From: Seison nebaliae
Lineage: Eukaryota
Assembly (NCBI GenBank): GCA_023231475.1
Contig: JALJEE010002231.1
Coordinates: forward strand, 1 to 64,000
Length of the DNA stretch: 64,000 nt
Direction of reading: 5' to 3'
In this document: positions 1 through 63,088 of the stretch, in pieces
How positions within the stretch are numbered: position 1 is the stretch's first letter
Layout of the letters: every line of letters starts with the position of its first letter
Translations under genes and position numbers: made by a program
The notes under the pieces: model-generated
The model's input: the letters and a program-made list of their open reading frames with translations, nothing else
Database searches by the model: none
What the model was told of the DNA's origin: nothing

Positions 1-433
1 CAAACGACGAAAACGTCCAAAAAAGTCGTATGTCATTTTTATGTGGAATCGTCGGAGATGTGCAAGATATTGGATATGCATTTGAAGAAAGTGGCAGCGA
101 AACATGTTGAAGCGAAATTCGTGAAATTGAATGCGGAGAAACCACATTTTTTAGTGAAACGTTTGAATATTAAAGTTTATAGTTTTTGTGTTGTTGTTGG
201 GAAGAATATGAAATTTATTAGAATAGGTGATCCCAACAATGGCGGTAGTGATTGACTCTATAATAAAAGATTATATAATCGGATTTAGTGACTTGGGAAA
301 TACAAAAGAGTTTTCCACCTCTGCTCTGGAATGGCGTTTAGCACCATCACAAATGATCGACAGTGACGGGGATGAACTGAAATCAACGATGAGTAATGTG
401 GAATCGTTCCCTTTCCAGATACATCAATACTAA
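1..433 (+). CDS. TXNDC9: Thioredoxin domain-containing protein 9 / phosducin-like PhLP3 (5' partial)
   Basis: Frame from base 1 reads KKVVCHFY..CKILDMHL..FVKLNAEKPHFLVKRLNIK, then intron 175-226 (GTTTAT..TAG), then VIPTMAVV..IIGFSDLGNTKEFSTSALEWRL, matching the family motifs. The 3' end is ambiguous (see findings). Confidence 0.88.
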
Positions 434-1080
434 AAGTAATTTACGAAGGAATGAAGGTGAAGATGCAAATTATCATGAATGGCCACCATCAAAATGGACA
501 AGGAGAGAAGTTTCATCATTATTTCATCTTCTTCATTTAATTTTTTTTTTCGCTCTTCCATATTTCAATAAGATTAATCGACAACTTTGTCAATGTGCAA
601 TCATTCGCACATTCTCTTATCTTTTCGATGAAATACATTTCGTGACATGATCAATTCAGTGCAATCATATATGGATATATTTCCTTAATCGATCTTCCTC
701 TCAAAAAATATGAGAAATATGAGACATCTTCAAAAAGAAATATAACTAAATCTCTAATAGTCAGCGAGTTGTTATAACAATTAAAATTGTTTCGTTATTC
801 GATTTATTCGATTATCACTTTCAATTTCTCGGTGGATTACATAGAATTGCTGCGGAATAATTCGATGAATAAATCGAAACTGAATAATTCGATCTTTATT
901 CCGTATCATTCCTTGATATTTGTCAATAATTCTTCAATGAATAAATCCTTTTTAATGATCAACTCCACATCATTCTTATTTGTATATATCGAATAGGAAG
1001 ACATTTCTTTCAGTTCTTACTAATTGCATTAATTCAGCATCAATGCAATTTCGACAATATAACAATCATTAATTTGATAA

Positions 1081-1614
1081 GTAGTGAGAAGGTGTGCCCG
1101 TGCACCAAAAAGAAGAAGTTCGACTTCTTCTCACCCAAATTAAGAGGATGTGGCGAGAATTGTCTCCTCTTTCACTCAACTACGAAAGAATTTATCAACC
1201 AAACTCATACCAATGATACATTCTCCTGTCTAATTAAAGGAAATTGATCACTTACTTAGTCGATGGAGCGAAACCATGCTTCATTCCGTCGAAATTCAAG
1301 GATTAAGTGATGAATCCCATAATAATCAATCTCACTTTCCTCACCATAAATATCATCATCGTGTCAAGCAAATTATCACAAATTACGAATAATTACTTTA
1401 CTTTATTCAGATCGTAAAAATAAAAAGTTCTGATGAAAATCATTGTTTGCTCTTTGGCAATATTCTCACTTCAATACATTTCTCTTCAATTCTAATTTGG
1501 GATTTGCGTCGAATCGTTTCTCTTTCATCTCTCCTCTTACATGTCTGGTCATTGTCGATTCCCTGTGAAGTTTTCATGGATTTCATGAGAAAACATTTCG
1601 TCGAATCTAAATAG
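1081..1614 (+). pseudogene. Possible decayed coding sequence, product unknown
   Basis: About 178 codons in one frame interrupted by only three TAA stops (1141, 1231, 1390), with protein-like composition (EDVARIVSSFTQLRKNL.., LKEIDHLLSRWSETML..). No homolog recognised. Confidence 0.3.
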
Positions 1615-1960
1615 CCAATTTAACTCCACACGTCAAAATGAAAGTTCGGAAGAAAACAATCGGAAATAATTTTATTGGTCTTCACAACTCCCTTTTATTA
1701 TCTTCGACTAATTTGGCCGGAGGAGAAGTTCGTTTCATTTAATCATTCCATTTCCCAGAAGAAGTCGATCATTAAAATTTTTCATATTTATCAAATTGCC
1801 TTCTCTCTCTCCTCTCTTTTCTTAGAGAAGGAAGAGAAAATGTTTATTTTTAACGCAATTCCTTTTGTTAACTCACGGAGCAATTTATGTCGTTAAAAAA
1901 AATGAAAGAAATTGAAATTTTCGTTCGGGAAAAGAAAAAATTCATTTTTGAAATGTTTCG

Positions 1961-3215: not shown

Positions 3216-3257
3216 GCAGATAATTTCAATTGTGATTTATTTGAAAATCTTATCGAA

Positions 3258-3768
3258 ATGGGTAAAATATTGAAACCGATGAAGGGAGTGATTATGTTGA
3301 ATGGGAAATATGCAGGAAAGAAGGGAATCATTCTCAAACTACATGAAGATCCGACTGATGCAGTTCATCCTTATGGATGTGCGTTAGTCGCGGGAATTAA
3401 GAAGTGTCCTCTACGAGTAACGAAGAAGATGCCAATGACCAAGATTCGTCGACGAACAACAATCAAAGCATTTGTCAAAGTCGTCAATTATTCTCATTTG
3501 ATGGTCACGAGGTTTGTACCATAATCATATTTGTTATAAACATCATCTGTTTACAGACATACTTTCGATACGAAACTCATGTTCCCCAATTGGAAGAAAC
3601 TAATGATTTCTCCGGAAAGCAAGAAGAAATTCTCCAATGAATTAGGAAAACTATTCACAGAAAAGTTAATTTTTTCTCATTGAAAAACTCACTTTTTTCA
3701 TTCGTCACATAATGAATAGGTATCGTAAAGGTGACAGTTCGTGGTTGTTTCAAAAGTTGCGATTCTAA
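3258..3768 (+). CDS. RPL27: 60S ribosomal protein L27 (eL27)
   Basis: MGKILKPMK..GKYAGKK..PYGCALVAGI..IKAFVKVVNYSHLMVTR; introns 3512-3556 and 3665-3719 (both GTT..AG) restore the conserved C-terminus YRKGDSSWLFQKLRF*. Confidence 0.96.
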
Positions 3769-4139
3769 TTGAAATTACTTTCTTCTGTTTTTTTCTTATT
3801 TCTAATAAAAACAAATCTTGTGATTATTCACCTTTTCACAATAATTTCCGAAGAATAATAAAATGATATTTTAATAAAATTTTAAATAGTTTAATTGAGA
3901 AGACATGTTTTTTAGTATTCAATTTTTAATAATTATCAGGAATTATTTCTTTAATTAATTATTTTTTATGTTTAAATTATTTGGTGAATAAGCTTAAATT
4001 TCAAAAAAAACAGAAATTTTTTGAATATTTTTTCTAAGAAAATTCAAATTTTAAGCTTTTAAATTCGAGGGGAATTTCTCGATGTTTTCGTCCTTCAACC
4101 TTGCCATCTCACATAAATTTTAACGATTAAAAGGAGGAG

Positions 4140-6845: not shown

Positions 6846-8069
6846 TTATGCTTTCGCTAAATTCTTGAACATATTCATCTCCATTTTCAACAAATCTTGA
6901 TTGACGTCCTTGAACGATTGATTTACCGATTCCATTTTCTCTGGTGCTTTACCTTGACTATTGGACATTGGTGATGATGATGTAGATTTGGTGACAGAGA
7001 GAGCGTTCTTCATTTTTTTGATAAAGAATTCTACTGCAGCAAAGTTGACGTCCATCAAGACGATGGTGAATAGAATGGTTCCGAGAACGATATAAGCCAC
7101 ATATCCCAAAGATGAAGATGTTTCGATTTCCGTTTTGTATTTGATGAGAATCTGTTGAATGATCTTCTCCGTTTCCTTCTGTAGTTCTTCGATATGTTTC
7201 TTCACCTTTTCTGTTCTTTCGTAAAGAATGACTTGAACATCATTCGTATCCAACGAATCTAATAGGAATAATAAAATATTTTTCCAAAATGGAAAACTAT
7301 CACCTGAATTACATGTCATATTTGGCAACACTTCCACCACCGGAGTGTTCGATCCATCAACTGTCTTTTGTCGACGCACTGTACACAAAGCTTTATTTAG
7401 AACAAAATGAGCTTCGCCTTTCTTAGGTGGTACAAATACAGAGGGAGTAATTTCTTCATTAGAAATTGCTGTAGCTTCACTTCCTGTTGATCCACTCTCA
7501 TCGTTAGTAGTAGTAGTAGCCTCCGTATCAGCTTCAGTAGTTGCTGCTTCTGTTGTTGGTGATTCAGTCGTTATTGAATCGTCAATCGTAATCACAGAAC
7601 AATCTGATATGACATTTATTAAATTTCATCAGAAATTAACTTTTAACCCTCTGTGGTGACAATATTGGTTTCTTCTACAGTGGTAGTCGTTTCTTCAGTA
7701 GTGGTAGTCGCTTCTTCAGTAGTGGTAGTCGCTTCTTCAGTTGTGGTAGTCGCTTCTTCAGTAGTGGTAGTCGATGCCGTTGTTGTGGCTTCGTCGGTAG
7801 TCGGCGAACCAGTAGTTGGAATAATACACTGCTCATTGTTATATTCAATATTAGAAACTTGTCTTGAGTTGAAGAAAATTAATAAGAAAATTAATTTAAC
7901 TTTCCTGGTCTACGTCGCTATTGTTGATGGTGAATGTCTGGTCTGGACTATCATTCGTTTTTATAACGACCTGGCTGGTATCATCTCCAACTGTCACAAT
8001 TATTTCATCCAAACAACGATAGTGTTCAAATGAAACGCAAAGGATGAGAAAAAGGAAAATTTTCGTCAT
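6846..8069 (-). CDS. Orphan type-I membrane mucin-like protein
   Basis: Signal-like MTKIFLFLILCVSF; introns 7858-7900 and 7604-7647 (GTTAAA donors) join Thr/Glu-rich TTTTEEA repeats to a Cys-containing region, a TM segment (LGYVAYIVLGTILFTIVLM) and a cytoplasmic tail. Confidence 0.7.
7680..7773. repeat. 21-bp coding tandem repeat, about 4.5 copies
   Basis: GTGGTAGTCGCTTCTTCAGTA units starting at 7680, 7701, 7722, 7743 and 7764 encode TTTTEEA on the minus strand. Confidence 0.9.
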
Positions 8070-8451: not shown

Positions 8452-9998
8452 TTAAGACCAAATTAAAGTTGAATAATGTTGCTGAAGAACGTGACGTAAT
8501 TCGTCAGCATGCGATCGACCTGTAGTTTCGACGACACATTTCACCTGAACAGAATGAATATCAGATTTCAACCAAGCTCTCTCATGATACATGTCCTTCA
8601 CACTGGAGTGTATGAGAAGAAGAATAAGGGAAATCCATTAAAACTAATTGAAGTTAGTTAAAGAGAACCTTATTCCTACTTCCGTCATTCGATGAGTCAA
8701 TTCTTCGAGACTACCTGGTCGATCCGATATAATAACATGGAAACGAACTAATCGTCCATCTTCCGCCAATCCTCTTTCGATGACTCGACCTAATACCGTC
8801 GTATCTATGTTACCTCCACACAACGGAATGACCACATTCTTTCCTTTTAATTCCGGAAGGAGATTTTGTAATAATGCTGCAACACCAGCCGCCCCTGCCC
8901 CTTCCACCACCGTCTTTTCCACTTCCATCAATCTTAATACTGCCAAAGCTATAAATTCTTCTTCCACTACTACCACTTTGTCCACATATTGCTTAGCGGT
9001 AGCGAAAGCATTATATCCCACCACCGACACAGCTAGACCATCAGCTAAACTACTTTCTGATGGACAATATACCGGACCATCATTCTCTAACGCCTTCATA
9101 TAACTAGCACATCTGACAGATTCTACTCCGATAACTTGAACTTCAGGACGTACTTGTTTAATTGCCAATGAGATACCTGCAATCAAACCGGCACCACCAA
9201 TTGGCACAATAACAGCATCTAAATTTTCCACTTGATCTAACATTTCTAAGCCTACAGTACCTTGGCCTTGAAGGATGTGCGGATGATCATAACTGAATGA
9301 ACAGTAAGAGTTTGCGGAGGACAATGGACAAAGAAGCCAACCCGTTTAAGTATCGAAGTTGAACATATTTCCGTAATTTTAATGCGATTCTTCGAGAACT
9401 TTCCAAATTTTTCCCCTTTACTAAAACTATTGCTCCATGTGAACGACATAATTGAATCTGAGAAAAACTTTTAAAGAAATAGTTCCAAATGAAGAAACTT
9501 TCATAATTGGTGCCATTGTTGGCATAATTACGACTACTGGAATATTTAATTGTTTTGCATGGTAACAAAGCGCTTGAGCATGATTTCCAGCACTCGCAGC
9601 AATAATTCCATTTTCCTTCTCCTTCTTCGACAACAAAAGAAGAGCATTTCTTGCACCTCTTTCTTTGAAACTCCCCGTGTATTGGAGATTCTCCTTCTTT
9701 AGATAGAGATCCAGACCTAACATTGATCCCAAATGAGATTTCTAAAATTATCACAATACATCCTCTTACAAACTAATCACTTTCCAACTTTACAAGGCGT
9801 TCGAACAATGTGACTTCGACAACGTATAGCAGCCGCCGAAATGTCATGGAAGTAAATGGATTTCGGTTGTTTCGGGTCGCAAAATTCATCGAATAAATCA
9901 TTAGCATCATCCATTTCTAGATCAATCTCATTTAAATCTATTTTTCCCAGAGCTACCATAATTTCTTCCATTCTTTTATCATATTGCTCGTCATTCAT
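8452..9998 (-). CDS. L-threonine/serine ammonia-lyase (PLP-dependent) with C-terminal ACT domain
   Basis: KKENLQYTGSFKERGA, AASAGNHAQ, GQGTVGLE, VPIGGAGLIAG, LADGLAV, VEGAGA, LCGGNID and ACT motif ISDRPGSL. Introns 9742-9788, 9458-9498, 9293-9341 and 8603-8668 are all GTT..AG. Confidence 0.93.
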
Positions 9999-11257: not shown

Positions 11258-13060
11258 ATGGATGGAAGATTGCAAAAGATGGAAATCGATTATCGAGAGA
11301 TGACCGACGAGAAAATCGAGAAAAGTGAAAAATTGGTAAATGAGAAAGGGAAAGAAGGTTTAAAGGAATCATTGGAAATGTTGGTACCTTTGGAGAAATT
11401 ATGTCGAATTGGGAATGATGTCAATTCATTGAATCGAATCATTGTTGCCATCGTACAATGTTGTTGTGCATGTAACGATTGGCAAGAATGTATGGAACAG
11501 ATGACGGTTTTGACAAAACGACGAAATCAAACGAAAGCGGCAGTGATTAATTTGATTCAGGAGGTAATAAAGAATTTAAAAAGTAAATTATATGAAAAGA
11601 AAGAAGAAGAAGAATTATTATTGAAAGTGATCGATGTAATTCGGACGGTGACTAAAGGAAAGATTTATGTAGAGAATGAACGAGCCGAAGTAACGAAGAA
11701 AATGGCGGAGATCGAAGAAAAGAATGATAATTTAGAGAAAGCGAATGAAGTAATGCAAGAATTACAAGTGGAGACTTATGGAAGTATGGAACGAAAAGAG
11801 AAAGTTCATTTCATTCTCGAACAAATGAGATTAGCTCTTCTTCGACATGATTATATTCGGGCACAAGTCATTTCGAAGAAAATCTCGAAACGATTCTTCA
11901 CCACCGAAGATGATACGGATGAATTGAAATTAACTTTCTATCGACAAATGATTCAAATGGATTGTCATTTCGAGAATTATTTCAACGTCTTTCAACATTA
12001 TCAACAGATCTATATGACCGATTCTATCAAACAAATCAAAGATAAGACGAGAGAAATTCTCATGCCAATGACCACATTCCTCTTACTCGCCTCATTCGAT
12101 AATCAGCAAACGGAAATGATTCATTATCTCACCAAAGACAAACATATGTCACTCGTTCCAACTTATAAGTTTTCTTTTTCTTTTTCTCCATTCTTCATTT
12201 GATTCTTTCTTAGGAATTTATTATCGAAATTTCGTCGAAGTGAAATTATCGATTGGAAGAAATTGTGTGAAGAATTGGAAGATCAATTGAAGAACGGTCA
12301 TAAGAAGGAGAAAGCGACAGGAATTTTCACAAATGAGAAAATTTATGAGACAATTTCCACCACCAACGCTCCAATAACAGCCGTTCCATCTCAATCACAG
12401 AATAAAAAGAATGGAGAAATGACGGTGGGAGAGTATCGATGGAATTTGTTGAAACATCGAGTCGTTGAACATGTTAGGAATTTTTTTATTTTAAATTTAA
12501 TTTAAAAGATTCTTCATTAATCGACCTAATATGGTCATTTTCCGATTGAATTTTAATATTCTCATTCTAAACAGAACTTACGATGTGTGGCGAAATATTA
12601 TTCGAATATCACTATACGTCGTTTATCGGAATTGTTGGATGTGGATGAGGAGAGTAGTGAGAAGGCATTGGCAGAATTAGTAATAAGTGGCGTATTAGCC
12701 GCAAAAATTAATCGATCGGAAAAAAATATAAAATTTTTGAGACATGAAGCACAAGCGCCCGAAACTACCAACGATGTCTCCCATATTAATGGTTCATATT
12801 TTTCAAATTATTTCTCCAAAATAATTATTTCATAATCAACAGATGAGACCAGTATTAAACAATTACATCAAATTCACGTATTGAGATCTGATCTGAATGG
12901 AGAAGGAGATGGAGGAAATTCGTTGAAGAACATTCGAGAACAAGAAACTCCCAAACAAATTTTGGAGGGTTGGAACAGGAATCTCCAAAATCTTATGGCG
13001 TATGTCAATGAGACGCGTCATCTCATCAACAAAGAGGAAATGATTCATACAGTCCGATAA
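11258..13060 (+). CDS. PSMD12: 26S proteasome lid subunit Rpn5
   Basis: GKIYVENERA, ELQVETYGSMERKEKVHFILEQMRL, RVVEH|NLRCVAKYY and C-terminal HLINKEEMIH. Introns 12169-12213, 12473-12574 and 12792-12842 are all GTT. Confidence 0.96.
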
Positions 13061-13273: not shown

Positions 13274-14615
13274 ATGGGTAAAAAAAGTAAAGAGAAAAAA
13301 TCAGAAAGTACACAGAAGAGTAATGATTCGAAAACGACGATATTTCAAGCTCGATTGCTTATGGAGTTCTCAATTGTCTAATTGAAATTTTCATCAATAT
13401 CAATTATTTTCATTTAGAACGAATCATCTAAAAAGTCTTCAGTCAAGAAAGGAAGACGATTTGAGTAAGTTGAGGAAGGAATTGGAGGAAGTGGAGAAGG
13501 AGTGGAGATATTTGGAGAATGAGAGAAAGAATGGATTGGAAAGATTATTAGAAGAGAAACGGAAGAATGATCAGAATAAAAACGACACAACTCAAAAAGA
13601 TGTTAATGATTCAAATGAAATTGAATTACATTAAATTTCCATTCAGGTTCTCGAAGCAATCGAAAGAAAGAAATTGATATTCGATCAATTTAATTTACAA
13701 TACGAAAGTTCCATCCTTGATTGATTTCCGATATATTTATTGTTTGATATCCAGATGAAATATCAAAAGAGAAAAAGAAAAAGAAATCAGCAATGGAACT
13801 ATTAAAGAAGATTGAGCATGATCGAACATTCCGTGACAAAATGAAAAAGGAGAACGAGAATATGATTGAACAACTTGAGAAGGAGAAAGAAGAATCGATA
13901 AATCGATTCTCAGTAATTTCCGGTTTTCATCATTCATTATCATCTTCTTCACCAATTCTCATTCGTTTAAAAGATTATTTAAAAAAATTAATGAAGAAGA
14001 ATAAAGACGAAGAAAAGGTGAAAGCAGAAAATATCATTTATGAGAAACAAACGAAAGAGGCCGATGTTTAAATTAATTCTTCTTTTTCTTCTTCTTCATT
14101 TTTCTCTCGTAGAAAGTTCTCCAATTCGTCGATAAAGAAACGATGAAGAAGATGACAGATAATATTTGGATTGAAAAAGAATGTGAAATTCATCGGAAAG
14201 AACAAAAGAATATTTTGGAAGATATCAAAAAAGAGAAAGAAGAGATTGAAAATCTTTTGAGAAATTTGTTCTCATCAGTCTCTAACAGTTTCCAACGTGA
14301 CACGTTTCTACTTTTCACTTTCATCATTCTCTCACCATCTTCATTTCTATTAGATATTTAGACAAAACTTATTTTGATGACGACACAATTAATAGTAAAA
14401 AGAGTAAACTACTTCTATTGACGATGTCGTCGGAGAATATCGGACGTCATTTGGAAGAGTTGACGGCAGCAAATATTCCCAGTCCAACAAATCAGAAATG
14501 TGAAGATGAATTGATTGAGAATGATATGGAAATCAAATACTCTCAAATTGAATGGCCAATAACAACAGATATGTTGAATGAAATATTGGAAGAGAAGAAG
14601 AAAGAGGAAAATTAA
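13274..14615 (+). CDS. CCDC83: Coiled-coil protein, CCDC83-like (probably ciliary)
   Basis: Seven exons, with GTT introns at 13366-13417, 13602-13646, 13708-13754, 13923-13973, 14066-14112 and 14304-14353. Segments TQKDVLEAIERK and FVDKETMKKMTDNIWIEKECEIHRKE resemble CCDC83 as I recall it; an X-box lies upstream. Confidence 0.6.
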
Positions 14616-14815: not shown

Positions 14816-15755
14816 TTAATAAATGGCGATAATGTGGAGGAAGTTATCTGGTGAACTCAGATGTTCGCACATGTATTGGATTGGAACGTTGAAAGATGGG
14901 ACGATACCTTGAACGATAAATTGTCCTTCAGAAATGATTTGTTGAACGTTTTCTTTCATTTCGAATTTTTCTAGAATCCATTCGAGCAAATCTCGAAATC
15001 GTCGTTTGTTCCCCTCACCATCTATCGGAGAGAAGAGTGCTTGATAGAAATTGAAATTGTTCATCTTTTCATTCTTCTTCCTGTAATAATAACGAAAAGG
15101 AATGTTGTGGAAGCAATTCGTCAATTTATTCTTCCTCATCAGAAGTCGATTAATCTCCCAAAACTGTTTGAAATTATTGGTTGATAATGACGTCCATAAT
15201 TGTTTGTGTTGTTGAGCGGTCATTGTTTGAAGTATTTCGCCATGATGTTTCAATTCATCCGCTTCTTTTAACGTCGACATAAAATAATTTTCTAATGGAA
15301 GTAAATCGTCGTTGGACATTTGAAGGATTTGTTCGAAAGGAAATTTTCCATATTTCGCCCGAATTACCCACGGGACTGGTTTGGGTGATATGTGAACTGT
15401 ATGTAAATCATATAAGAGACCGATGGGTAATTGCCATCTTAATGGTTCGTCTTGGAATTCGAACCAAATACTATCATTCCTCATAGGATCGAGAAAAGAA
15501 GTGAAATATCGATCAAATTTCCTCATGATTATTGGGAAATATGTGTTACGATGAACAGATATCTAAAAATAGATTTTATTATAATTAGATTTTTAAAAAA
15601 ATATTAACATAAACGGGATCGGGAGATTCACTCGACAGAAAGACGGAAGATTCGTCTAATTCGATTCGAATGGTAACGGTACCATTCCATAATTCTTCCA
15701 ACAATTCGTCATCAAAATGATGATCGACATTTTCCAATTTCTTCTCTTCACTCAT
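14816..15755 (-). CDS. ATG5: Autophagy protein 5
   Basis: ELWNGTV.., intron 15563-15608, then IWFEFQDEPLRWQLPIGLLYDL, PWVI, KEADELKH, IPFR and HLSSPDNFLHI. Confidence 0.95.
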
Positions 15756-17191: not shown

Positions 17192-18822
17192 TTATTCTTC
17201 TTTCCTTCTCATTTTCGATGAATGATTCCGTAAATTCCATTTCTTTGTGAATTTCTCCGGTTTTCGTCGTCGTTTTCTCTCATGTTCTCCTTCCAATTTA
17301 GCACGTCTCTGACGTTCTAAATCAAGTCAAAATAATAAGAGATATGATATTGAGAAATGAAATTGAATGACTAACTGAACATTTTCCATTTAACGGGTGC
17401 AATCGATTGACTGAAATCCACATGAATTCGTCGATCATCAATAAGAGAATTATTCATTTTGAAATAAGCTCTCTCACAATCCTCTTTCTAACAATGTAAA
17501 TGAGAATGAATATTAGAAATTTTAGAAGAAAATGAAAAAAGAAAGAGAGAAACTTTGTCATATTCGATGAATCCATATCCCAATGAATTGCCCGAATTCT
17601 CATCTTTGATGATATTGCAACTGATTGGAAAAATAAATTATTTATAAATTAAAGTCAATAATAAAATGAACCTGATAATACGACCGTATTTTGAGAAGAT
17701 AATCTCCAAATCATCTTCATCTGTTATCGAATTCAATTTACAAACAAACAAAATATTCTCCGGTGGTTTAATATCCGCATATGGTAAGTCACCCATCTTA
17801 AAGAAGTGAATTAATAAATGAATGGAAAGAAGAACTAACAATTTCTAATAAAGTTCCATGAGCTTTCTCTTCTTTGACTTGTTTGATCTGTTCCAATTCT
17901 TCATCATTCTTCCCTTCTAACAGATTATCATTTTCATCCACACAAATCATTCCATTCTATTATCATATTATTATTCAATTATCAATAAGAAAAAAAGAAT
18001 GATGAAGAATAAACTTCGACGTCAGAAATCGTTGGAGGTGGTGATTTCCTTCCGAATCGTTTATGTTCATCATCAGTCCATTGGAATGGATCTTGAATGA
18101 CGACTATGTGATAAATCCTGTTGAGAATGAGATTCAAATAAGAATAATTTAAATAATTCTCACATGATGTCTTGTAGAGGTCGACCGTTTTTATCACAAA
18201 AAACATCATTGATACTTGAAAGAACTTCCATTGATTTTGATGTTTTTGAGTGATCATCCTCTTCTTCTACCACATGTCCAATGACTCGATGATTCATATC
18301 ATCCAATCGATCACCGTCACGATCGAGACTAATGAAAAACTATGGAGAAATATGTTGAAATTTTTCCCAAAAACAAGTTGGAGGAACTTGTGAACCAAAT
18401 TGATTTTGTCCGACATTCACTAACGATACTGTTCCATAAGTATGTTTCTTCTTCTCCGAATGAGGTGCCAACCATAATAAATCTCGTTTACTCTTCCCGA
18501 TGAAACTAGAAAATTACAAAGAAAGAATAAAGAAAGAAACTGTTGATATGATTCACCCATTGTCCATTGACGATTCTTATTCGCACCAACTTGACATAGA
18601 AAATTTCTCTAAATTCATATAATTAGAAAAAAAAATTTTAAGAAAAAATTAATTCGAACTATATTATACAGATAATTATCTAACTTGAACGTTGTTGAAG
18701 ATGGTGAAATTATAATATTTCGTTCGACATAATCCAAGGAAATTCTTCACTGCTTTCGCCTCCTCGTCGACGAGCAGATCGATCGTCATACAACCGATGG
18801 AACTTTCGATGACGACTGACAT
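17192..18822 (-). CDS. PPIL4: Cyclophilin-RRM protein
   Basis: [74 protein letters not shown]. Nine introns: 18609-18684, 18506-18540, 18340-18387, 18118-18163 (GTG), 17957-18014, 17797-17839, 17621-17671, 17488-17553, 17317-17375. Confidence 0.93.
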
Positions 18823-19069: not shown

Positions 19070-20691
19070 ATGGGAAAGTTTCAGAATGATGATCGTTTCA
19101 AAAAAATTAAAAAAGATAAACGTTTTCGTCTCTTTCAACAAAATGAGTCGAAAGTAAAAGTGGATGATCGATTCTCTTCCATGTTCACGAAAAAACAATT
19201 CCAGAAACAATTCCAAATAGACAAACGAGGTAAATCAGTCACTAAATCTTCGTTGGATGAATTGAAAAATTTTTTCGTTGTCGATAAAGAGAATAAAAAT
19301 GTAAGTCCTGATGATGATGATGATGATGATGAAGAAAAAACTGAGGAAGAAGAAGAAAATGATGATGATGAAGATGGTAATGAGGAGGAGGAGGAAGAAG
19401 AAGAAGAAGAAGAAGTGAATGATGAAATAAAAATCGAAGGAAGTTTTTTGGATTTAGTGGATGAGAATAATATTGAGATGGATGAAATGACATCACGGTT
19501 TTTAGCAATTTGTAATTGTAAATGGGATGTGGTGAAATCAGTGGATTTATTTGCTCTCTTTACCTCATTTATTGAGAGTGAGAAGTTGTTATCAATTTCC
19601 GTTTATCGAAGTAGTTATGGAATAAAAGAATTGGAGAAAGAAGCAGAAAACGGACCAACACCATTCAGCAAATCCAATAAAGATCCTTATGAATTGAGAC
19701 AATTGAAATATTATTTCGCTGTCGCCATCTTCGCCGACGATGAGACAGCTATCCAACTCTACAATGAATGTGACGGATTAGAATTCGAAACATCAGGAAA
19801 TCGATTAGATCTTCGATTTATCAATAATGATGACATGTATTTCGATGAATCGAATCTCGATAATCGTATTACAATGACAGATTGGAAATCACAGAATTTA
19901 TCAGAATCATATGAAGCACCTCCAACTTTCTATTGTCAATCGTTGTCCAATACGATTTTAGATAATTCTTTAAATAATTGGGATTGTAACGATTTGCGAC
20001 GACAGAAAATTTTCGAGAAAATTTTTGACGATGATTCGTGGAAGAAAAGTTTCTTCTTCTTTTCTCCTCCTCTTCCTCCTCATCATCATCATATCCTCAT
20101 CACTTAGATAAGAAGAAAAGACGTAAATTGGAAGAAGATGACGAACTTGACAATTTAACAAATTCATTATCCGCTTATATTGCTCCACCATCATCCGATG
20201 AAGAATCGGAGGAACTCCAAACCGATATCAACGATATGAATGAGGTGAAGAAGAAAGTGGCAATTCTCTCCAAACAAACCCAACAAAGAAAACCACCAGA
20301 GAAAAAGAGAAATATTGAAAGAAAAGAAAAATCTCCAATTCACGTTCAACCAGACAATTCAAATGATAAGACGAATAATGAAGAACCCGAAGAGAAAAAT
20401 CATTTTCTGGTGACGGATCTCGTGAAATTCGAGAAATTGTTGAAGAAGAAAAAGAAATCGAAGAAACAACAAAAAGTTTTCGAACGACTACAAAAGAAAT
20501 ATAAGAACGATAAATTTGAAGTTTTTTTCCCATTTGATTTTTTTTGAATTTTAAATTTTTTTTCTTTTCAGTTCAATTCAGAAGACAATCGTTTCATGAA
20601 GGAACTGAATAATAATCATTTGTTTCATATCGATCCTACATCTTCCCAATATCATGCAACGCCAGCGATGAAAAATTTAATGAAACGATAA
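19070..20691 (+). CDS. ESF1: Pre-rRNA processing protein ESF1
   Basis: DDRF..KVKVDDRFSSMF..DKRG, acidic tract, TSRFLAICNCKWD, YELRQLKYYFAV, YNECDGLEFE..LDLRFI and a NUC153-like FNSEDNRF..FHIDPT. Introns 20049-20107 and 20521-20571. Confidence 0.92.
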
Positions 20692-31218: not shown

Positions 31219-32311
31219 ATGAATGAAGAATTGGAGAGACTTCTCAACTCTTCATCAACACCATCAGCTGCATTTCGTGCATATTTGTTGCACTACTCTT
31301 ACTTCGTACTCTTCAGTCTGATATCATGCATTTTCTCATACGCGATCCAATTGATGGTGTGGTGGATGATGTTCAAATTGATTTTCAAATACTCTTACCG
31401 ATATTCCACCGTCTTCCTCTCTTTTCTCAAATGTAAATGGCGAAATTCGTCACAATCATTCAATACCTTCCTCTCAATGCATTTGACGGATGAATTGAAG
31501 AATTTGAAACGTCAACCGAAACATATTTTGATTTCATTAGAGACATCCATCGATTATCGATTGTTATCCAATTGTATAACGACGGCCATTTTTTATCTGT
31601 CTCATGTGAAGTCATTGAAAGAATTGACATTCATTTGTTCTCCTCATTTGTCGGAGGAGTCGATGAATCAATTACTTCGTCTCATCGGTTTTCTTTCTTT
31701 TTTTTATTGATAATAAATCTCTTTCTTTCCCGAAAATAATAAAGACGAGAAAGATGGTCCCTTATTAACGATCAAATTATTCCACAGTAATCGAGGAAGA
31801 GACGAGTTAATGAAGTTACTGATGAAGGAGAAGGAAGTATCGGGGGGAAGACGAAAAAATTCGTCAGAAGAAATAATGGAAAGTTAATTAATTTATTGTC
31901 CTATTTCCTGTCACGATGAAAATGGGGAAATAAAATTCCCTATTCCCCTCAAACAGAATGGAAGAGTCAACGATTAGATATTAATCTCATGTTATTACCT
32001 CGATGGTCAATGCAAGATAGTTGCGCATTATCATTCAGTCCACCTCATATCCATCTATGCGAGTTTATGTTAGTGAAGATGTTGTTTTCTATTCAATTAA
32101 TTTTCTATCCAAATTACCATTCCCTTCCTTCATACCCATTACCGTCTTCCTCTGATTTCTTCAACAAATTCTAATTCGTTTAATTATTAATTTTATCTCA
32201 TTTCTTTTTCTCTCTAGACATTATCATTCCATCGATGAGTTAAGATACGGCGAACGATATATGGAATTCCTTCATTCCTTCAACAATAAATCCCAACGAC
32301 TCGGTAAATAA
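31219..32311 (+). CDS. NUS1: Dehydrodolichyl diphosphate synthase subunit NUS1/NgBR, divergent
   Basis: N-terminal TM, LKRQPKHI, GRDEL, FSPPHIHLCEF and the hallmark C-terminus SQRLGK*. Introns 31688-31744, 31883-31956 and 32069-32217. Confidence 0.78.
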
Positions 32312-37900: not shown

Positions 37901-38545
37901 CCTCCTCCAAATCATTTTTCGTTATTCTTATTCCTCATTCATTTCAGGCATTTCTCATCGCATTTACATCTAATTTCCTTCCGAAATTACTTTACCAATT
38001 CGAACATAATGGAAGTCTTGCCGGATATATCGACTCCACTCTTTCAACATCTGCGACGAACACGACTGTGTTGGAATGTCGGTTAGGATAATTATAGAAA
38101 AATATTGAAAATAATTTCTTTTTTTCAGCTATCGAGATTATCGTCATTTGAATGGAACTTATACGCCGACCTTCTGGAAACTATTAGCATTACGACTGGT
38201 TTTCATCATTGTTTTCGAAGTTAATTCTCCCTCATTAAACTTAACTAATTTGTTCCTTTTCTTTCTTACTTTCTTTCTTTTATTCGTTATCAACAATTCG
38301 AATTTTGATGATGATATAAATCTGATTTGGGGATGGGAAATCAGCATACGGTCTTTGGGATAACACGATTAATCGAAGTTTTAGTACCGGACGTACCGAA
38401 GAAATTGGAAGTTCTAATCAAAAGAGAAAGATATTTAGCGAAGCAAGCTTTGGCAGATAGTTCGATTCATTCGAAAACGAGAGGAATTCACAAATCACAA
38501 CGAAGTGTTACTTATAACTGCGAACTGAACGTTGAAGCGAAATAG
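34921..38545 (+). CDS. Anoctamin/TMEM16, ANO7/ANO4-like, 17 exons (5' end uncertain)
   Basis: [95 protein letters not shown]. Sixteen introns between 34957 and 38344: 14 GTT, one GTAAGA (37140) and one GTGGAC (37767). Confidence 0.94.
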
Positions 38546-52594: not shown

Positions 52595-54376
52595 ATGTTG
52601 GAAGTGGATTGTCGAGAGAATTTATCGTTGAACGATCAATTTGATGAAGATACGTCACTTGATAAGAATGTTAATGGAAACGATAGTGGTCATGATGACG
52701 AAAAAGATGAATTATCATTCTCAATTAACCGAGTCCTCCAACAACCCATTTCACGAAAACGACGTTTAGAAGATGACCATCAACAATCATCATCATCTTC
52801 CTCATCCTCCTTATTATCAACAAAAACGAACGATCTGGAAATGATTCCGAGTGAATCAATAAAAAATTTCTTTAACAACTTTTTCCATCTCTTCAATCAA
52901 CTTCAACGACAACAGGAGCATGATCAGAATGAAATTGTCGAAACATCAAATCGTAAACGGAATTCTTCGTTTCTTATCGGAAGTCTCACCGAATCCTCTT
53001 CACTTCCCATCAAACAACGTCGAATCACTAATAATCTGATGGATATTTCGATTTCAAGTCATGATAAAATTGAAGATGATGTTACCACGGTAACAACTAC
53101 AACTACTACATCATCATCGTCTGAAGTGAATTCGTCGTATTCGGAACCGTTATTAAATTCGATTGATTCGGATGGAGAGCCTGTACAACTGAAGGTGAAT
53201 CCATGTAACAATGTCGTCACGTTATCGGATGAGAATGAGAATGGAATAAAAGTTCGTTTAGATTCACGTGAGTTGTGGATGCAATTCTCGAAGATTGGAA
53301 CGGAAATGGTCATCACTAAATCGGGAAGGTTTGAATATTCAACTTTCTTATTTATTTAAAATAGAAATTTTTTATCATTTTTAATTATCAGACGAATGTT
53401 CCCGTCATTCAAAGTGAAAGTGAATAATCTTATTCCTGACAAGAAGTATGCTATGTTAATCGATATAGTTCCATCAGATAGTTGTCGATATAAATTCCAT
53501 GGTTCTAAATGGATTGCGACAGGAAAGGCTGATCCAGAAATGTCAAAACGAATGTATATCCATCCCGATTCTCCTGCTACTGGTGCGCATTGGATGTCGA
53601 GATCTGTATCATTTCACAAATTGAAATTGACGAATAATATCAGTGACAAACATGGATTCGTTCGTCTATTTCTCTCATTTCTTCATCTTAATTTCTTCTT
53701 TCCTTTCTTCAAGACAATTCTTAATTCTATGCATAAATATCAACCTCGATTCCATATCGTCCAAACTGACGACTTATCAAAATTGTCATGGATGACGTTG
53801 AATACATTCATCTTTCGCGAAACTGAATTTATTGCCGTGACAGCATATCAGAATGAAAAAGTTCTAATAATTTTAAATTTTTCTTCTGTAATTTTAATTA
53901 ATTAATTCTCAATCTAATTGAATAGATAACCAAATTGAAGATTGATAATAATCCGTTTGCGAAAGGTTTCCGGCACAATGCTTCAGGTAAGCGAGAGAGG
54001 AAGTTAATTAGTTTTTTTTAAATTCAAATGGTCGATGGTGTAACGTTTTCCATTTTGTAGGAGGTTACTTTTGACTAAGAATGAAGAAGATGATACGTCA
54101 AACAATTTCCAATATAAGATGAATGAAATGTCAAATGAAACGAATAATGAGAAGACATTATTCGATTATATGCAATTGGCCTCACTAACGAAGAAATTAC
54201 GTGGACAAAATGAGCCAAATGAGAGTGGAATTCACATGGACACATCTCGTCCCACTTCAAATATTCTGAACAGAACCATCTTGGAGAATACGATGTTGTC
54301 AACGATAACGAATTTCCTTCAAAGGAAAATGGAGAATTCGTTGGCGTCGGAGAAGGTAATGGAGAATGAAGATTAG
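52595..54376 (+). CDS. T-box factor Tbx2/3 (omb-like)
   Basis: eh1-like FSINRVL; T-box [85 protein letters not shown]. Introns 53329-53391, 53660-53713, 53861-53925 and 54003-54060. Confidence 0.94.
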
Positions 54377-54671: not shown

Positions 54672-55220
54672 TTATTTCAACTCTCCACAATCAGAAATTT
54701 TTACTTTACCTTTCGGTTTTCCTTCAGACGATCCAAATGTTTCTATCAGTTTCACCAATTCTTGACCTTTTGTTACTTCTCCAAATACCACATGTTTCTC
54801 GTCCAGCCAATCGGTAGTGATCGTGGTTATGAAGAATTGAGATCCGTTCGTATTTGGACCGCTGTTTGCCATCGATAGTTGAAACGGTTTCGTATGTTTC
54901 ACATTGAAATTTTCATCAGGGAACTTTGTCCCATAAATACTCTTTCCACCAGTTCCATTATTTTTGGTGAAATCACCACCTTGCAGCATGAATTCGGGAA
55001 TTATTCGGTGAAAGAACGAACCTTTATAGCCATATCCTTTTTCACCAGTGCAAAGTGCTCGGAAATTCTCAGCAGTTTTCGGAACTACTTCGTTGAATAA
55101 GACGAATTCTATTCTTCCTTGACTTTTACCATCGATTTCTATGTCGAAGAAACATCTAAAAACAATGAAATTGTGGAAAGGAGAAATGTTTGAGAATGGT
55201 AACCTTGAACGATCGGACAT
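54672..55220 (-). CDS. Cyclophilin A-type peptidyl-prolyl isomerase
   Basis: MSDRSR|CFFDI (intron 55156-55203), [62 protein letters not shown]-like TATATAAA near 55321-55328. Confidence 0.95.
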
Positions 55221-55672: not shown

Positions 55673-58601
55673 TTATTGTATTTGGTCGGAAATATCCTTC
55701 CGTTTGACCTCACCAGTCTCATGATCAACAACTTCCAAAATAATCGGAGGCGATTTACTGCCCGAATATTGTGTAGTCATCGGTTGCATCGATGATGTAA
55801 TTATGATCGATCGATTATCATCATTCTCCATATTCGTACTATGACCGGAGTATATTGATGATTGTGCATTGCTCTCTTCGTATTGTCGAACACTCGCCAA
55901 ATATTGATCTTGTTGTTGTTGTTGCCTTTGCTTGCAATTCTCCAAGGTCATCTTTTGCAACTGTATTTGCAGTTCAGCATTTTTCCTTGCCATCTCTTCA
56001 TTGATCTGCTGAGTTTTCTGTAAATATTCGTTGTTCTGTTGGAATTGTTGACGGATGTGATGTTGATCGACGGACGGAGGAACTGGTGAGGGTTGATTTG
56101 GTGGAATGTTCACCGTAATGTGAGGCTGAACAATAATCTGATGTGACGATAAATCCTGAGATGATGATTGAATGAAAAATGTGAAAAAAATTCTTTTTAA
56201 ACTTTATCCGTTTTCTTCTCACTTTCCATCTTTTCACTTCTTTTCGTCATCTCTTCATTCACTACAGTCGTACCAATACTACTGATTGGTGAACTACTAG
56301 AAAATTTGGGTGGCGAATCTCTCTTATTCTTCTCACTATTGTTCCTACTGCTACTACTACTGCTGCTGCTGCTACTACTTGATGAAGATGATTTTTCACG
56401 TATTTTTCTTTCTTCAGGTCCTATTGGGTGAAAATCGTCAAAATCATAACTGGTTTGTTCGGAGACTGCTGTAAATTCTGATTCCGTATGTTCCGAATGA
56501 TATTTCGCATCAGCCGACAATCGGCTAGCCATCTCATTTATTCGTCTCACTTCCAAATCATTCGAGTCAGTTTCAGAAGTATCAATTCGATATTTTTCAC
56601 GATGATGTTTATTCCTGCTTTAAAAATTATAGAAAATATTTAATGAATTTCAAATAAAAATATTCTTTTCTTAAAGAAAATTCAGAAATTTTTTAGAAAA
56701 ATTTCCAATTAAAAATTTAGAGGGATAAAAATCATTTTAAGTCTTTAACATCCCACAGCCTTGAATGACGACTTGACTCTTTGGTTTTCCATCATCCGTA
56801 CCATATTTTTCAATCTCCTTTACAAGATTCATTCCGTTTGTTACTTCACCAAACACTACATGTTTGTCATCCAGCCAATCTGTTTTTACCGTTGTAATGA
56901 AGAACTGAGAGCCGTTTGTATTTGGACCACTATTTGCCATAGATAACTGGAATGGTTTCGTATGTTTTGTCTTAAAATTTTCATCTTCAAATTCTTCACC
57001 ATAAATACTCTTCCCACCCGTCCCGTCATGATGAGTGAAATCACCACCTTGGATCATGAAATCGGGGATGATTCGATGGAAAGTACATCCCTTAAAACCA
57101 AAACCTTTCTCTCCAGTACATAAACAACGGAAATTTTCCGCTGTCTTAGGCACAATGTCATCGTATAACTGAATATAAATAGTTCCAACATTCTTTTGAT
57201 CGATGGCAATATGCAAATAACATCTTTTTTGTACAATTCAATCAATTTTAACAATTTAAAAAAATTTCCATTTTTTAAAAAAATGACTTCAACTAAGGGA
57301 GAATAAGAAATCTAACTGAGTTCTTCGTTTACTATCCTCTTTCACATAACGAGGAGCACCTGGAGGTGGTGCGATATCATTTCCATTTTCATCAACATAA
57401 ACATATTCGGTGAAGACTTCCGGTTGTTTCTGCTGTCCTTCGAATTGATCAGGAGACATCATTTGATTTTGTGGTGGTAATTTTCTTCGATGATCTCTTC
57501 GATCTAAATTTGAAATAAATATTATTTTTATTTTCATCCAAAATTAAAACTTTCCATCATTGGAGGAGCTGTCGGTGGTGGGAAAGGTTGTGGTTCATTT
57601 CTTTGAATATATTCCTGTGGTGGTGGTTGCTGTTGTTGTTGGTGTTGGTGTCGATGATCATAGTGTGCTAATAAATATATTAATTTTATTTGTTTATTAA
57701 AAGGATAAATTATAATAATTGTGAAACCATTCGGCTGATAAATGTCACCTCCATATTGATCAATTGACATTTGTCGTGTAGGTTCGGGTGGTGGCGGTTG
57801 TCGATGTTTTCTATGTCGTCTTTTTTCTTTCATCTGCTGATTATATTCGTCGTAAATTACCGTTGAACCTGGTGGTAGACCATGTAAAGGATTTCTGATT
57901 TCTGGTGGTACTACACCTTGGATTGGTTGGAAATTTTGTGGAGGTGGACTTTTTGGAGGTGCGGGATATATGGATTGTGTAGGTGGTGGCATATTCATCG
58001 GTGGTGGTGATATAGCACGAGGTGGAACTGGTGCAAAATTAGAGGGCGGATTGATTGGTGGTTGGTTCATAGGAGGAGCTGGTGGGAAATGTTGCATTGG
58101 TGGCGGTGAAATGGCTCTGGGTCGTACTGGTTGAAATTGTGCTGTTGGTGGAGGTGAGATTACTCTGTGCATTGGTTGCATAACAGGAGGAGGAGAAATT
58201 ATTCGACCCATTGGAGGTCCCAAATTCGGTAGCGGTTGAATCATTGGTGGTGGCGACATCGTTCGTTGCATTGATGGCTGTTGTGGCATTAATTGAACGG
58301 GCACAGGTGAAATTGGCGGTTGCATGTTCATTACTGGAGATAAAGCTCTGTTGTCGAATGTGGGTGAAACGATTTGTCTTTGTGGTGCCATTTGAGTTAT
58401 GATTGGTGGTTGTTGATAATTTTGCATTTTTTGCATCGGATTATAATAACCCATTTGGTGTTGGGGTGGCTGCGGCGATACCATGTGTTGATGGTACGCA
58501 TTCTGAATCTGACTCTGTTGTAATTGACAATAGGATTGTTGGGAAGAGTTTAGACAAACATTCGAATTCGTTGGAATACAATGTTGTTGATGAGGATGCA
58601 T
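55673..58601 (-). CDS. Multidomain cyclophilin: Pro/Gln-rich N-terminus, PPIase domain, Ser/Gln-rich coiled-coil tail
   Basis: GTT introns 57668-57727, 57504-57550, 57224-57316, 56615-56749 and 56156-56202 join four separately listed ORFs and the PPIase ORF (56737-57216) into one continuous frame. Confidence 0.75.
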
Positions 58602-59331: not shown

Positions 59332-61641
59332 ATGAAAGGTTTAAATCATCCTCTAACTAAACCATAAGAGTTCCATCCTAGTAACTTCCATTTTCTTAAT
59401 TATCTTCTTCTTAATTGAACGAGATGTGACTATTCCGGCACATATATTTTCTTTGCCTCCCAAGGAATGTTTACCGACAAATCTATATTTCTATTCCGAA
59501 AAATGTAACCACATGTTTAGTAATTGAATATTTAAAATTAATGTTTAATAAATATATCAGACTATTCTTTGACTACAATGATGTGGAACCATTTGGGACC
59601 ATGATTTATTACGAATTATTGCGAGTTTTATTTTTAATAAACCAACCCTTCCATAAAATTGTTAGATGCAGCATGTCAATTGTTTAATTTGGTCGACTAC
59701 ACGCAAGAATGTAAAACGCATACTTTTGAAGCACCGTGTAAGTTACGGACCATCGTTCAAAAGTTCCATCAAACAATTCTTTCTTTCAATAATCATCTTT
59801 TATTTGATCCTTAGAACATTTGAGATTTCAAATTAGGTGGTTTCTCAATCAAGAATTTACAATATTACCTTGTCGAATAGTTGTCCGTATTCCACCAAAT
59901 TATTCTAGTTATCGTTTTGACGAAATTAAGATAATTTCCAATATGACGAATAATAATTGTTAGCATTTAACTCGACTTTACCTATTCTCAATAAGTTGCA
60001 TAAACATCAATCAGCTCATAAAACTAATGATATTAAAGTTAGATACATTACTCTCATTCTTCATTTGATGGCAGTTGAGGACTTCACCATGTATTTCTAT
60101 GTTGTTGTTTGTCTTATATGATTTTGTTTGTAGAGAAGCCGTTAAACTTTGATTTCAAGTGTAACATCAAATTATTTATCATTTCAAAAAATAAAATAAA
60201 ATTTCATATGGTCCTATTCAAATTTTTCCTTTCTATTATTCAGAATGAAACTATTTCAACGGAACTTCAAACTATCCTAACAAATGAAACTACTTCACTT
60301 CAATACATTACAAACTTTGCAAACCGACAACAAACTATTGAATTTTCACAACCAAACGACACAGACGTACCTCATAAAACCACAAATTTACCGAAATACA
60401 TTACTGATTCGCTACCAGAAGACTTAGAACTTAACACTACAAACTTACAGCAGAACGTTACAAATTCATCGTTAGTCTTTACAGACTTAGAATTTAACAC
60501 GTCCGAATTCCAAACAATATTGCCAGTTAGTGTTTCTGCCTTGTAACTTTCTTCCAACCAGAATTGGGTTGAATGGAACAATTCACAAGAAAAATAATAG
60601 ATCGTAAGTAATCTCATAAATTATAATGAGTATTCCTGATTATTTATCTAATCTCATTTTCACATCTTTCAACTCATCTATCTGCTGCCCAAAATTCAAT
60701 TTATTCTCAAATTATTCCTATAATTTTCATGTGATGTCGTTTATAATTTAGGATTCATCAATGAATTGGGCTGAAACAAATTTAACGCTATCAACAAATT
60801 TCTCCAATCAAGAAAATGCGTCTCAGAGAATGTACACGGAAAGGAATTTCATTTTAATCTCTAATATTTCGACAAACAAACTTCATGTTAATTTTCTTTA
60901 AAAATTTTAATTTTGGAAGATCGATTAAGGTCGATGAATTCCATAAACATCTCCTCCAGATCAAGCAGAAAGGTGTTCTTGATTATCGGAATAAGAAGAA
61001 TATTCGTGCTAAAGAAATTGTTTGTATTTCTTCTTCTCACATGCATACTAACTTCCTTTAGCTCAGGAATGCTTTAACTAAAACGTATAACGAAATAATT
61101 GAGGGTGAAGGAGGAATGTTGAATGTTCAAATAAATAAGGAGAAAATTGATGAAGATCGAAAGATAATAGATTATGAATATCTGTTCGAAACAGAAGTCA
61201 CAAATATAAAAAATTTAATGAAAATCGGAACGGATGGAATGCAAGAATTATTATTCCCATCTGAATTAGTGGAAGAAAAAATGACAACTGAATTAATGAA
61301 AGAAATAGACGTTGTTTCTCATAGTTCTAATATTCTTTTCCACATGTCACATAACATTTATGATATTAGCATTATCCACGCCTGAAATACAATTCGCAAA
61401 GAAATTACCGTCGAATATACCAAAAAAATATACTTTCATCGGATTTGTTGCATTATTCCTGCTTGTGATGATTGGAACACTGATACTATACCATATCAGT
61501 TATCATCAAATTTCTGTGTTCATTTCACTTTCAACCATTCTAGTTCGAGAACAAAGAGAAGTTCAGAAAAAAAATAACGAAAAACTTAAACGTGCATGTT
61601 CCTTATCGCAAACATCAATAAAATATGTAAGGAGTATTTGA
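59332..61641 (+). CDS. Orphan multi-exon membrane protein (exon chain only partly resolved)
   Basis: MK|VTSIFLIIFFLI signal-like start via GTT intron 59339-59381, a Thr/Asn-rich exon near 60244-60530, and a C-terminal TM segment YTFIGFVALFLLVMIGTLILY. Confidence 0.45.
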
Positions 61642-62051
61642 AATAAGAAAAGGAATTTATAAATAAAAAATTTTCGTCAATTGCAAATAAAATTATTTTT
61701 TTCTTTTAAATAATTTATTCTTATAATTTCCGATAAGACAAAAAAACTTCCTTTAAAACCATTTACGTCTTCTTTCATATTTGTAAGGTTATTCGGAGAA
61801 TATGATGACCCATTTTCCCAATATTCCGGCAAATTATCAAGACCAAATAAGAAGAAAGTACTTGAAGAATAAAGTGAAAAATTGAGAATTTTTCAGAAAA
61901 TGGAATAATTAAAAAAAACTGGAATGAACACAAATTAAATGATTTCCAAAAAATAGAAACACAAAAATTTTAATTTAAAATACTTTAATTCGACTATTAG
62001 GTATTCGATTTCAAACTAATAAAAATCTTCCGTTTATTTCTGTCCAGATCT

Positions 62052-63088
62052 TTATCCAACTCCAGATACTGTAAGAGCATCGGCGAAAATAAAATCATCT
62101 GAAAAGAATGAATGTAAAATGAACGAGAGAAAAGAAGAAAACCTTTGGATGCTAACAATGGACCGTTGGAGTAAATGATGAAATATTTGGAAGATGTATA
62201 ATCATCCATATAAACATCTTTACAATAATCTGTATTTGCAATTATTCCTATGAGATATGGATCACAAGAACATCCACAAACACCTCCTCCCCAAGCCATA
62301 TGACGATGATATCGATAATCTACGTGCACATATCTGAAAACGTCGAATATTTTAGAACAGATAATAAAAAAAAAACTTATAAAAAGATTGGAATTGAATA
62401 TGTTCGTCAATAACGTTATCGAGAATATAAGGAACACCTCCAGAATGTAACGGCCCAGTAATTGATACTAAGTTAGAAACTTTGAACCAATCATTATTAT
62501 TTGACAAATCCGCGTATCCGAATAATAAACTTAACGTGACTACATTCTCAATATAATATTCGACTTTTATCTGATAAACGAGAAATTTTCAAAGAAAAAC
62601 AAAATGAGGAATTGAAACATTAGAGAACTGAGGTTGTTGTATGACGACTTCTGACATATACGACTTGTTACTAAAATCAGCCACATCGGATGGGTCAGGA
62701 TTTAGTAAAGATTTCCATCTATCGTCCAAACTAATTTCATCTCCTTTCACCATACGTCCAAGCAAAGTCGCTATCATAATTTGAAATTTAAAAGAAATTT
62801 ATTTGATTAAGAAGGAAAACTTTCGAATATTTTAAATTTATTATTTGCTATTTCGATACATGTGAACTTTTCATTTGGTGGTTTACTGAACGGCTCTTTC
62901 GCATATCGTTCATAACAGAATGACTGATATTTATAAGCTTCTGTTAATTCCATTTTATCCATCACATCCTCCAAAGAAAGATGAATACTGTTCTTCCCAA
63001 TCTTGGTGAAATCGAGAACAGCATCTCTCACTAAACTTCCATATAAATGGATGAAATAAAATTGGATTGTAAAAAGAATAATTTTCAT
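62052..63088 (-). CDS. Secreted uncharacterised protein
   Basis: Signal-like MKIILFTIQFYFIHLYG; four GTT introns (e.g. 62771-62820, 62571-62618) give ..IKVEYYIENVVTLSLLF..NDWFKVSNLV..WGGGVCGCSCD..FIIYS..FIFADALTVSGVG*. Confidence 0.6.

Follow-up and report, generated by a model that had tools for sequence, protein, structure and literature searches.

The purine at the third intron position (+3) of the 5' splice site, or donor, is among the most stable features of animal genes. The closest described departure lies in Entamoeba, whose GT-AG spliceosomal introns carry a near-universal U at +3. Entamoeba is intron-poor, 87.9–89.5% of its donors read GUUUGU, its branch point is positioned, and a matching change in the U1 small nuclear RNA (snRNA) is reported (bioRxiv 10.1101/2022.06.08.495308). 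According to the same source, transformed donors are concentrated in intron-poor lineages, and matching machinery changes are called elusive. Among animals, the tunicate Fritillaria borealis shows a genome-wide change of splice-site code that affects the terminal dinucleotides, with a conserved U1 5' end (bioRxiv 10.1101/2025.08.15.670264). Here, we describe the donors in a stretch of DNA from the marine rotifer Seison nebaliae, a member of the Seisonidea, epizoic rotifers with a ~46 Mb genome and compact genes (PMC8351084). The stretch—all 64,000 nucleotides (nt) of positions 1–64,000, forward strand, of contig JALJEE010002231.1 (assembly GCA_023231475.1), hereafter the window—is animal DNA that is rich in A+T, with a GC content of mostly 29–38%, and densely packed with genes.

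As in Entamoeba, the introns of the window have GT-AG ends and a near-universal T at +3 (59/62). They differ in that (i) +4 and +6 are free and +5 G is weak, (ii) no branch-point motif was found, and (iii) they belong to an animal, in which one gene has 16 of them. Further, a matching U1 change is reported for Entamoeba and would be a prediction for Seison. The difference from Fritillaria is that GT-AG is kept and +3 changes. Judged from sequence, then, the window donor is a variant of the major-spliceosome donor that is Entamoeba-like at +3, found in an intron-rich animal, and without fixed +4 to +6. In our literature search, conducted outside most subscription journals, GTT donors were reported neither for Seison nor for any other animal; the accessible part of PMC8351084 holds nothing on splice-site sequence or snRNA.

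The curated set consists of 62 introns in 18 genes, with lengths of 35–125 nt (median 51). Fifty-nine begin GTT, two GTG (18163, 37767) and one GTA (37140); a purine at +3 is thus seen in 3/62, and the donors depart from the GTRAGT consensus. An initial annotation of this DNA had reported 68 GTT donors among 71 introns, a picture that our own set reproduces down to the identity of the three exceptions. Ten of its coordinates were looked up (nine donors plus 62820), and all read as described, on the strand given or on the minus strand. GTT donor usage in the window is confirmed at the level of DNA.

All junctions were placed from DNA and proteins (homology, deposited gene models and reading frame) rather than from spliced reads. 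Thirty-two were tested against protein profiles; the rest were placed by frame, Pfam context, family alignments or a gene finder alone. Twelve unsupported finder introns were dropped, nine of them GTT (11011, 29133, 31883, 32020, 32081, 56749, 55021, 14856, 14804) and three not (29838, 29901, 7913), and seven introns, all GTT, were added by hand (175, 3512, 3665, 9788, 9498, 9341, 38844). The set is given below, with P0121, P0243 and P0361 denoting deposited proteins.

175..226, + strand: intron of a thioredoxin-fold gene, presumably TXNDC9-like; GTTTAT; frame continuity, weak Pfam Thioredoxin match
3258..3768, + strand: RPL27; introns 3512–3556 and 3665–3719, both GTT; Pfam Ribosomal_L27e, three-frame reading
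7604..7647, − strand: intron of a mucin-like membrane gene; GTT; gene finder only
8452..9959, − strand: threonine dehydratase-like gene; introns 9788–9742, 9498–9458, 9341–9293 and 8668–8603, all GTT; Pfam PALP
11258..13060, + strand: PSMD12; introns 12169–12213, 12473–12574 and 12792–12842, all GTT; profile-tested
13274..14615, + strand: unnamed coiled-coil gene; donors 13366, 13602, 13708, 14066 and 14304, all GTT; gene finder only
15563..15608, − strand: ATG5 intron; GTTAAT; Pfam ATG5
17192..18822, − strand: PPIL4-like cyclophilin-RRM gene; GTT donors 18684, 18540, 18387, 18014, 17839, 17671, 17553 and 17375; P0361 mapping, other-species profile, Pfam
18118..18163, − strand: exception intron of the PPIL4-like gene; donor GTGAGA; next-best cut 36 bits lower
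19070..20691, + strand: ESF1; donors 20049 and 20521, GTT; Pfam RRM_ESF1, introns by gene finder only
31688..31744, + strand: intron of a gene that we take to be NUS1-like; GTT; gene finder only, without a Pfam match
34921..38545, + strand: anoctamin (ANO7-like) with 16 introns; P0121 exact mapping, other-species profile, divergent contigs (see below)
34957, 35302, 35461, 36157, 36383, 36654, 36802, 36967, 37251, 37407, 37594, 37897, 38082 and 38220, + strand: GTT donors of the anoctamin
37140..37195, + strand: exception intron of the anoctamin; donor AAG/GTAAGA; P0121 mapping, profile
37767..37811, + strand: exception intron of the anoctamin; donor AAG/GTGGAC; P0121 mapping, profile
38684..39754, − strand: SP/KLF-like zinc-finger gene; introns 39282–39232 and 38844–38776, GTT; Pfam zf-C2H2
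41088..43884, + strand: EGF-repeat gene; GTT donors 41163 and 41485; gene finder only
52595..54376, + strand: TBX2/3-like T-box gene; introns 53329–53391, 53660–53713, 53861–53925 and 54003–54060, all GTT; P0243 mapping, profile
55156..55203, − strand: cyclophilin intron; GTTACC; Pfam and finder
56156..56202, − strand: intron of an unnamed gene; GTT; gene finder only
56737..58601, − strand: proline-rich gene with a terminal cyclophilin domain; donors 57727, 57550 and 57316, GTT
62052..62962, − strand: unnamed gene; donors 62820, 62618, 62376 and 62142, GTT; gene finder only

Could the junctions have been miscalled, the true donors being nearby GTA or GTG sites? They rest on DNA and on gene models that can err, and 30 of the 62 lie outside the profile test. 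Three kinds of evidence bear on the matter. Firstly, the deposited Seison nebaliae proteins P0121 (anoctamin) and P0243 (T-box protein) are 100% identical to the window over the whole query in single-exon searches, and the P0361 record corresponds to the PPIL4-like gene; all three are predictions, and were counted as supporting only. P0121, mapped codon by codon without any splice rule, leaves 16 gaps, and each of them can be cut as GT-AG in just one way: 14 are GTT, and two are the exceptions listed above (37140 and 37767). The P0243 mapping gives GTT in 4/4 gaps, and that of P0361 leaves ten gaps, with nine GTT and GTGAGA at 18163. Across these exact mappings there is a single GT-AG cut per junction among 1–7 possible cuts. 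One P0361 gap, at 18472, is probably a gene-modelling error, because on an other-species profile a 9-intron model scores 401.5 bits against 386.0, placing the P0361 intron 18472–18429 15.5 bits lower. P0361 uses another acceptor for the 18540 donor and adds this extra intron, cutting out conserved cyclophilin sequence; the intron favoured by homology (18506–18540, − strand) is, at 35 nt, the shortest in the set.

Secondly, the profile test scored every GT or GC donor and every AG acceptor that keeps the frame and lies within 36 nt of a junction. With profiles of 45 homologues each for the anoctamin, T-box and PSMD12 genes, none from the organism of the window, the expected donor ranked top at 23/23 junctions, while a different acceptor was preferred at one. 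Margins fell below 1 bit at three junctions (34957, 36802, 12792), in no case against a GTA or GTG donor. An in-frame alternative GTA or GTG donor exists at only 4/23 junctions, where it is 3.5 to 38.6 bits worse; the other 19 have none within 36 nt. The PPIL4-like gene, scored with a 20-homologue profile, has 9/9 donors top-ranked, bringing the other-species profiles combined to 32/32, of which 29 are GTT.

Thirdly, we used a Viterbi gene finder that is blind to +3 (only GT is required at the donor, and +3 to +8 are neutral). In the window it returned 67 introns, 61 of them GTT; without the two genes used for training, the count is 43/47. When the anoctamin was held out, 13 of its 16 donors were found again, along with five others. 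Run on 12 bdelloid-like loci, in which GTT is the commonest GT triplet, it gave 67 GTA, 7 GTT, 4 GTC and 3 GTG among 81 introns, and is therefore without bias toward GTT. With this return of GTA on bdelloid-like DNA and the profile rankings set against it, we regard miscalling as very improbable.

The 12 bdelloid-like loci (L001–L012) are metagenome loci from a scan with Adineta steineri PSMD12 (P0032), so labelled because they are 83–98% identical to Adineta PSMD12 after spliced alignment; identity is the sole basis of the label, and the relatives sampled are bdelloid-like only. Introns occur in 11 of the 12 (44–194 nt; locus GC 21–35%), and all 49 begin GTA, representing seven independent positions rather than 49. 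The comparison with relatives that the initial annotation had proposed thus sets GTA in 49/49 against GTT in 59/62. Standard animal U2-type and bdelloid-like donors have in common with those of the window the GT-AG ends, an A at −2, a residual +5 G, introns of ~50–60 nt and two PSMD12 positions; they differ at +3 (A 49/49 versus T 59/62) and at +4 (A 39/49 versus 17/62). Bdelloid-like donors are themselves unusually strict at +3, with no GTG, and loose at +5 (G 21/49).

The two common positions, at residues 297 and 356 of P0032, are those of window introns 12169 (GTTTTC) and 12473 (GTTAGG); the bdelloid-like introns there are GTA in 18/18, PSMD12 being the sole gene compared. These introns, at least, are thus inherited ones whose third base has changed. 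Taking GTA as the ancestral state, because the general animal consensus is CAG/GUAAGU, they are on this alignment old introns that switched from A to T at +3. An introner-type invasion is unlikely, given the two positions common with relatives. The window PSMD12 is without five of the seven bdelloid-like introns and has one further intron (12792); at 535 residues, it is ~80 longer than most homologues (~455).

Base composition does not account for the T at +3. In the window as a whole, T follows GT at 39.4% of 5725 GT sites, and in intron bodies, which are 50% T and 5.7% G, at 34/58 (59%); the observed 59/62 exceeds both the latter rate (p 6e-11) and 50% (p 1e-14). A loss of constraint at +3, followed by drift to T in T-rich introns, would suit the composition of the intron bodies and the other positions that track it: +4 (A 17/62, T 26/62) and +6 (T 25/62, G 3/62) are at intron background. 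Drift is nonetheless contradicted by the excess at +3, and by the bdelloid-like introns, which are of similar length in A+T-rich loci and still uniformly GTA; it is scarcely credible.

Some ordinary donor signal persists around GTT. At +5, G (16/62) is enriched 4.5-fold over its share in intron bodies (5.7%; p 3e-7); it is found in 15/41 better-anchored introns versus 1/21 finder-only introns. A at −2 is seen in 41/62 against an exon background of 35% (p 5e-7), and −1 is G in 21/62 and A in 28/62; the excess of A at +7 is weak (25/62, p 0.03). The earlier proposal that the +4 to +6 consensus is lost holds for +4 and +6, but not for +5 G, which that account had itself counted in 18/71. Likewise, the GUU donor it described is supported, as a required signal; "collapsed" overstates the change, because −2 A, a purine at −1 and a weak G at +5 persist, and the relatives are already strict at +3 and loose at +5. 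As far as donor sequences tell, the change is a switch of the +3 letter plus a loss of +4 A. All 62 introns have GT...AG ends (GT or GC plus AG being preconditions in the finder and profile tests), more than 30 distinct donor hexamers occur among them, and GTTTGT occurs in 1/62.

At the acceptor, −3 is a pyrimidine in 53/62 (counted before two end corrections), and the intron body is U-rich. The branch-point motifs YTNAY, YTRAY and CTNA are not above shuffles in the 62 introns (YTNAY, 52 observed versus 52.4 shuffled); TCAT occurs 28 times versus 15.5, an excess from which nothing is drawn because the shuffle preserved base counts only. Another GTT lies 35–68 nt from the same acceptor in 20/58 short introns, and there is no avoidance of decoy GTT near donors (29/91 versus 197/630 in long exons, p 0.9). 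GTT alone thus does not fix the donor. Coding exons show a slight deficit of RGTT (z −2.4 in a set of 14 patterns), and low GTA reflects a general TA deficit, ATA, CTA and TTA being equally low.

Two known donor classes were considered and rejected. The U12-type donor has the invariant motif RTATCCTT, and 0/62 window donors begin GTATC. Shifted-register donors, in which U1 reads one base downstream, do begin GTT (Roca and Krainer 2009, as described in PMC9311317); this register predicts G at +6, where G is at background (3/62 versus 5.7%), and +5 G is enriched instead.

The splicing machinery of Seison has likely come to recognise another start signal; the initial annotation had put forward a compensating change in U1, U6 or donor-contacting proteins. 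The 5' end of U1 forms pairs with CAG/GUAAGU (PMC9311317), so that U1 position 6 lies opposite +3, and the reading that we prefer, with a probability of about 0.5, is that Seison U1 gained an A opposite +3. By complementarity, a single change at position 6 would turn GUU into a match and GUA into a mismatch. U1 would then pair chiefly between −2 and +3, now and then aided by +5 G. An intron that is short, U-rich and poor in G would, with its YAG end, provide the remaining definition across the intron; the rare GTA and GTG donors could survive where the flanks pair strongly or through a standard copy of U1 that has been retained. An A that is strict in relatives and a T that is strict in the window are as expected from one base change in the reader, and the residual signal at −2, −1 (G) and +5 lies in the ordinary U1 register. 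Precedents are the pairing of GUUUGU donors with U1 ACAAAC in Entamoeba and another matched change in Mastigamoeba (bioRxiv 10.1101/2022.06.08.495308). More broadly, and at the same rough odds, Seison would be the first animal case of an snRNA recoded for donor reading: a change in the U1 5' end (or in the U6 box) would have swept through while the inherited introns of a genome rich in them went from GUA to GUU, and a second U1, of the standard kind, may have been kept for the few GUR donors.

Several observations weigh against a changed U1. Median computed duplex energies of the donors are similar and weak with the changed and the standard U1 (−1.8 and −1.7 kcal/mol), and true donors are separated from decoys with an area under the curve of 0.67 and 0.72, respectively. 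The three exceptions pair well with standard U1 (−9.5, −6.1, −4.5), and GTGAGA barely pairs with the changed one (−0.3). A position 6 change alone leaves the loss of +4 A unexplained. Finally, U1 is standard despite atypical donors in yeasts, Giardia, Trichomonas, Thecamonas and Micromonas (bioRxiv 10.1101/2022.06.08.495308), and its 5' end is conserved in Fritillaria (bioRxiv 10.1101/2025.08.15.670264). An Rfam search of the window gave 0 matches at gathering score; at E up to 5 there were six weak matches and no spliceosomal snRNA among them.

The poor pairing of most true donors with U1 under either model, and the fit of the exceptions to standard U1, suit a different arrangement: U1 would be standard but weak or bypassed, and the U at +3 would be checked later by the U6 ACAGAGA box (either altered or forming a G-U wobble), along with PRP8 and with U5 loop 1, which would pair to the A-rich end of the exon. 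Intron positions 2–6 are those that lie opposite U6 ACAGA, so that GUU could extend the pairing (bioRxiv 10.1101/2022.06.08.495308); in a yeast structure, U6 A51 pairs with +2 (bioRxiv 10.1101/212811). The A-rich exon ends described above would suit U5 loop 1. Yet if U6 is unchanged, U would be expected more at +4 and +6 (Watson-Crick) than at +3 (wobble), and at the first two it is at background (26/62 and 25/62 versus 50%). For a changed box, no precedent was found in the accessible literature, and Entamoeba keeps its box (bioRxiv 10.1101/2022.06.08.495308). We hold this arrangement possible but doubtful.

Alternatively, the snRNAs could be standard in sequence, with diverged proteins (U1C, LUC7 or a TIA-1-type U-binding factor) or altered snRNA modification reading the U at +3. 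In Fritillaria, splice sites changed with the U1 5' end conserved and N6-methyladenosine (m6A) on U1 and U6 altered (bioRxiv 10.1101/2025.08.15.670264), and Entamoeba U1C is strongly diverged (bioRxiv 10.1101/2022.06.08.495308). Proteins of the window are fast-evolving: its PSMD12 is at most 49% identical to the 120 matches listed. However, a factor that binds U-rich sequence in general does not account for 95% T at one position, because T makes up only 50% of intron bodies, and we consider an explanation of this kind unlikely.

Whichever component reads it, the switch took place at inherited positions, in an animal whose genes have as many as 16 introns, with bdelloid-like relatives staying strictly GTA. 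It offers a natural experiment on the ways in which a spliceosome and the introns of its genome can change code together, and gene models for the group to which Seison belongs will be faulty when the finder has been trained on other animals.

Sequencing runs X1, X2 and X3 (one sample) and X5 contain the window without differences over 36900–38251, together with low-depth contigs (depth 2–3.5) that differ from it at ~12–20% of exon bases. X5 is probably DNA, and no spliced joint was seen in the runs, which carries no weight on splicing either way. The divergent contigs recur at 3616–3812, 4938–5134, 7105–7345, 12890–13049 and 36900–38250; this recurrence across many genes suggests a second related genome in the DNA, a paralogue being the alternative. 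Over 36900–38251, where the divergent contigs cover neither exception donor, their alignment continues as far as +3, +4, +5 and +6, respectively, at donors 37251, 37594, 38082 and 38220, and is lost thereafter. Across intron 37897–37947 there is no listed difference at +1 to +3 or at AG, with 20 substitutions and one deletion between. Alignment thus extends through at least +3 at 5/5 covered donors, GTT at four of them being read from the alignment stop; thin as the data are, this would fit selection on +3.

Some smaller features of the window remain to be described. In window 1–495, X1 and X5 contigs have ~2x depth and differ at 220 and 232 (X1 also at 142 and 353); this part may be a collapsed duplicate or another haplotype at the contig end. 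A higher-GC island with broken frames at 22021–24050 (42.5% in 22001–24000) resembles, by eye, a decayed non-LTR (long terminal repeat) retrotransposon; two scanned pieces of it gave no Pfam match. Intronless conserved genes—an anoctamin, a POLDIP2-like ApaG-domain gene and a tubulin (4140–6380, 16028–17092, 44997–46382)—occur alongside the 16-intron anoctamin. Two cyclophilin domains lie near each other at 54672–58601 (− strand), one of them ending a long proline-rich protein, and a third is in the PPIL4-like gene at 17192–18822. In ATG5, tandem GTT donors stand 6 nt apart at 15608 and 15614 (− strand); the upstream one, 15614, was chosen by the finder, while we take 15608 to be the donor on the alignment of the family, and two-residue alternative splicing is possible at this site.

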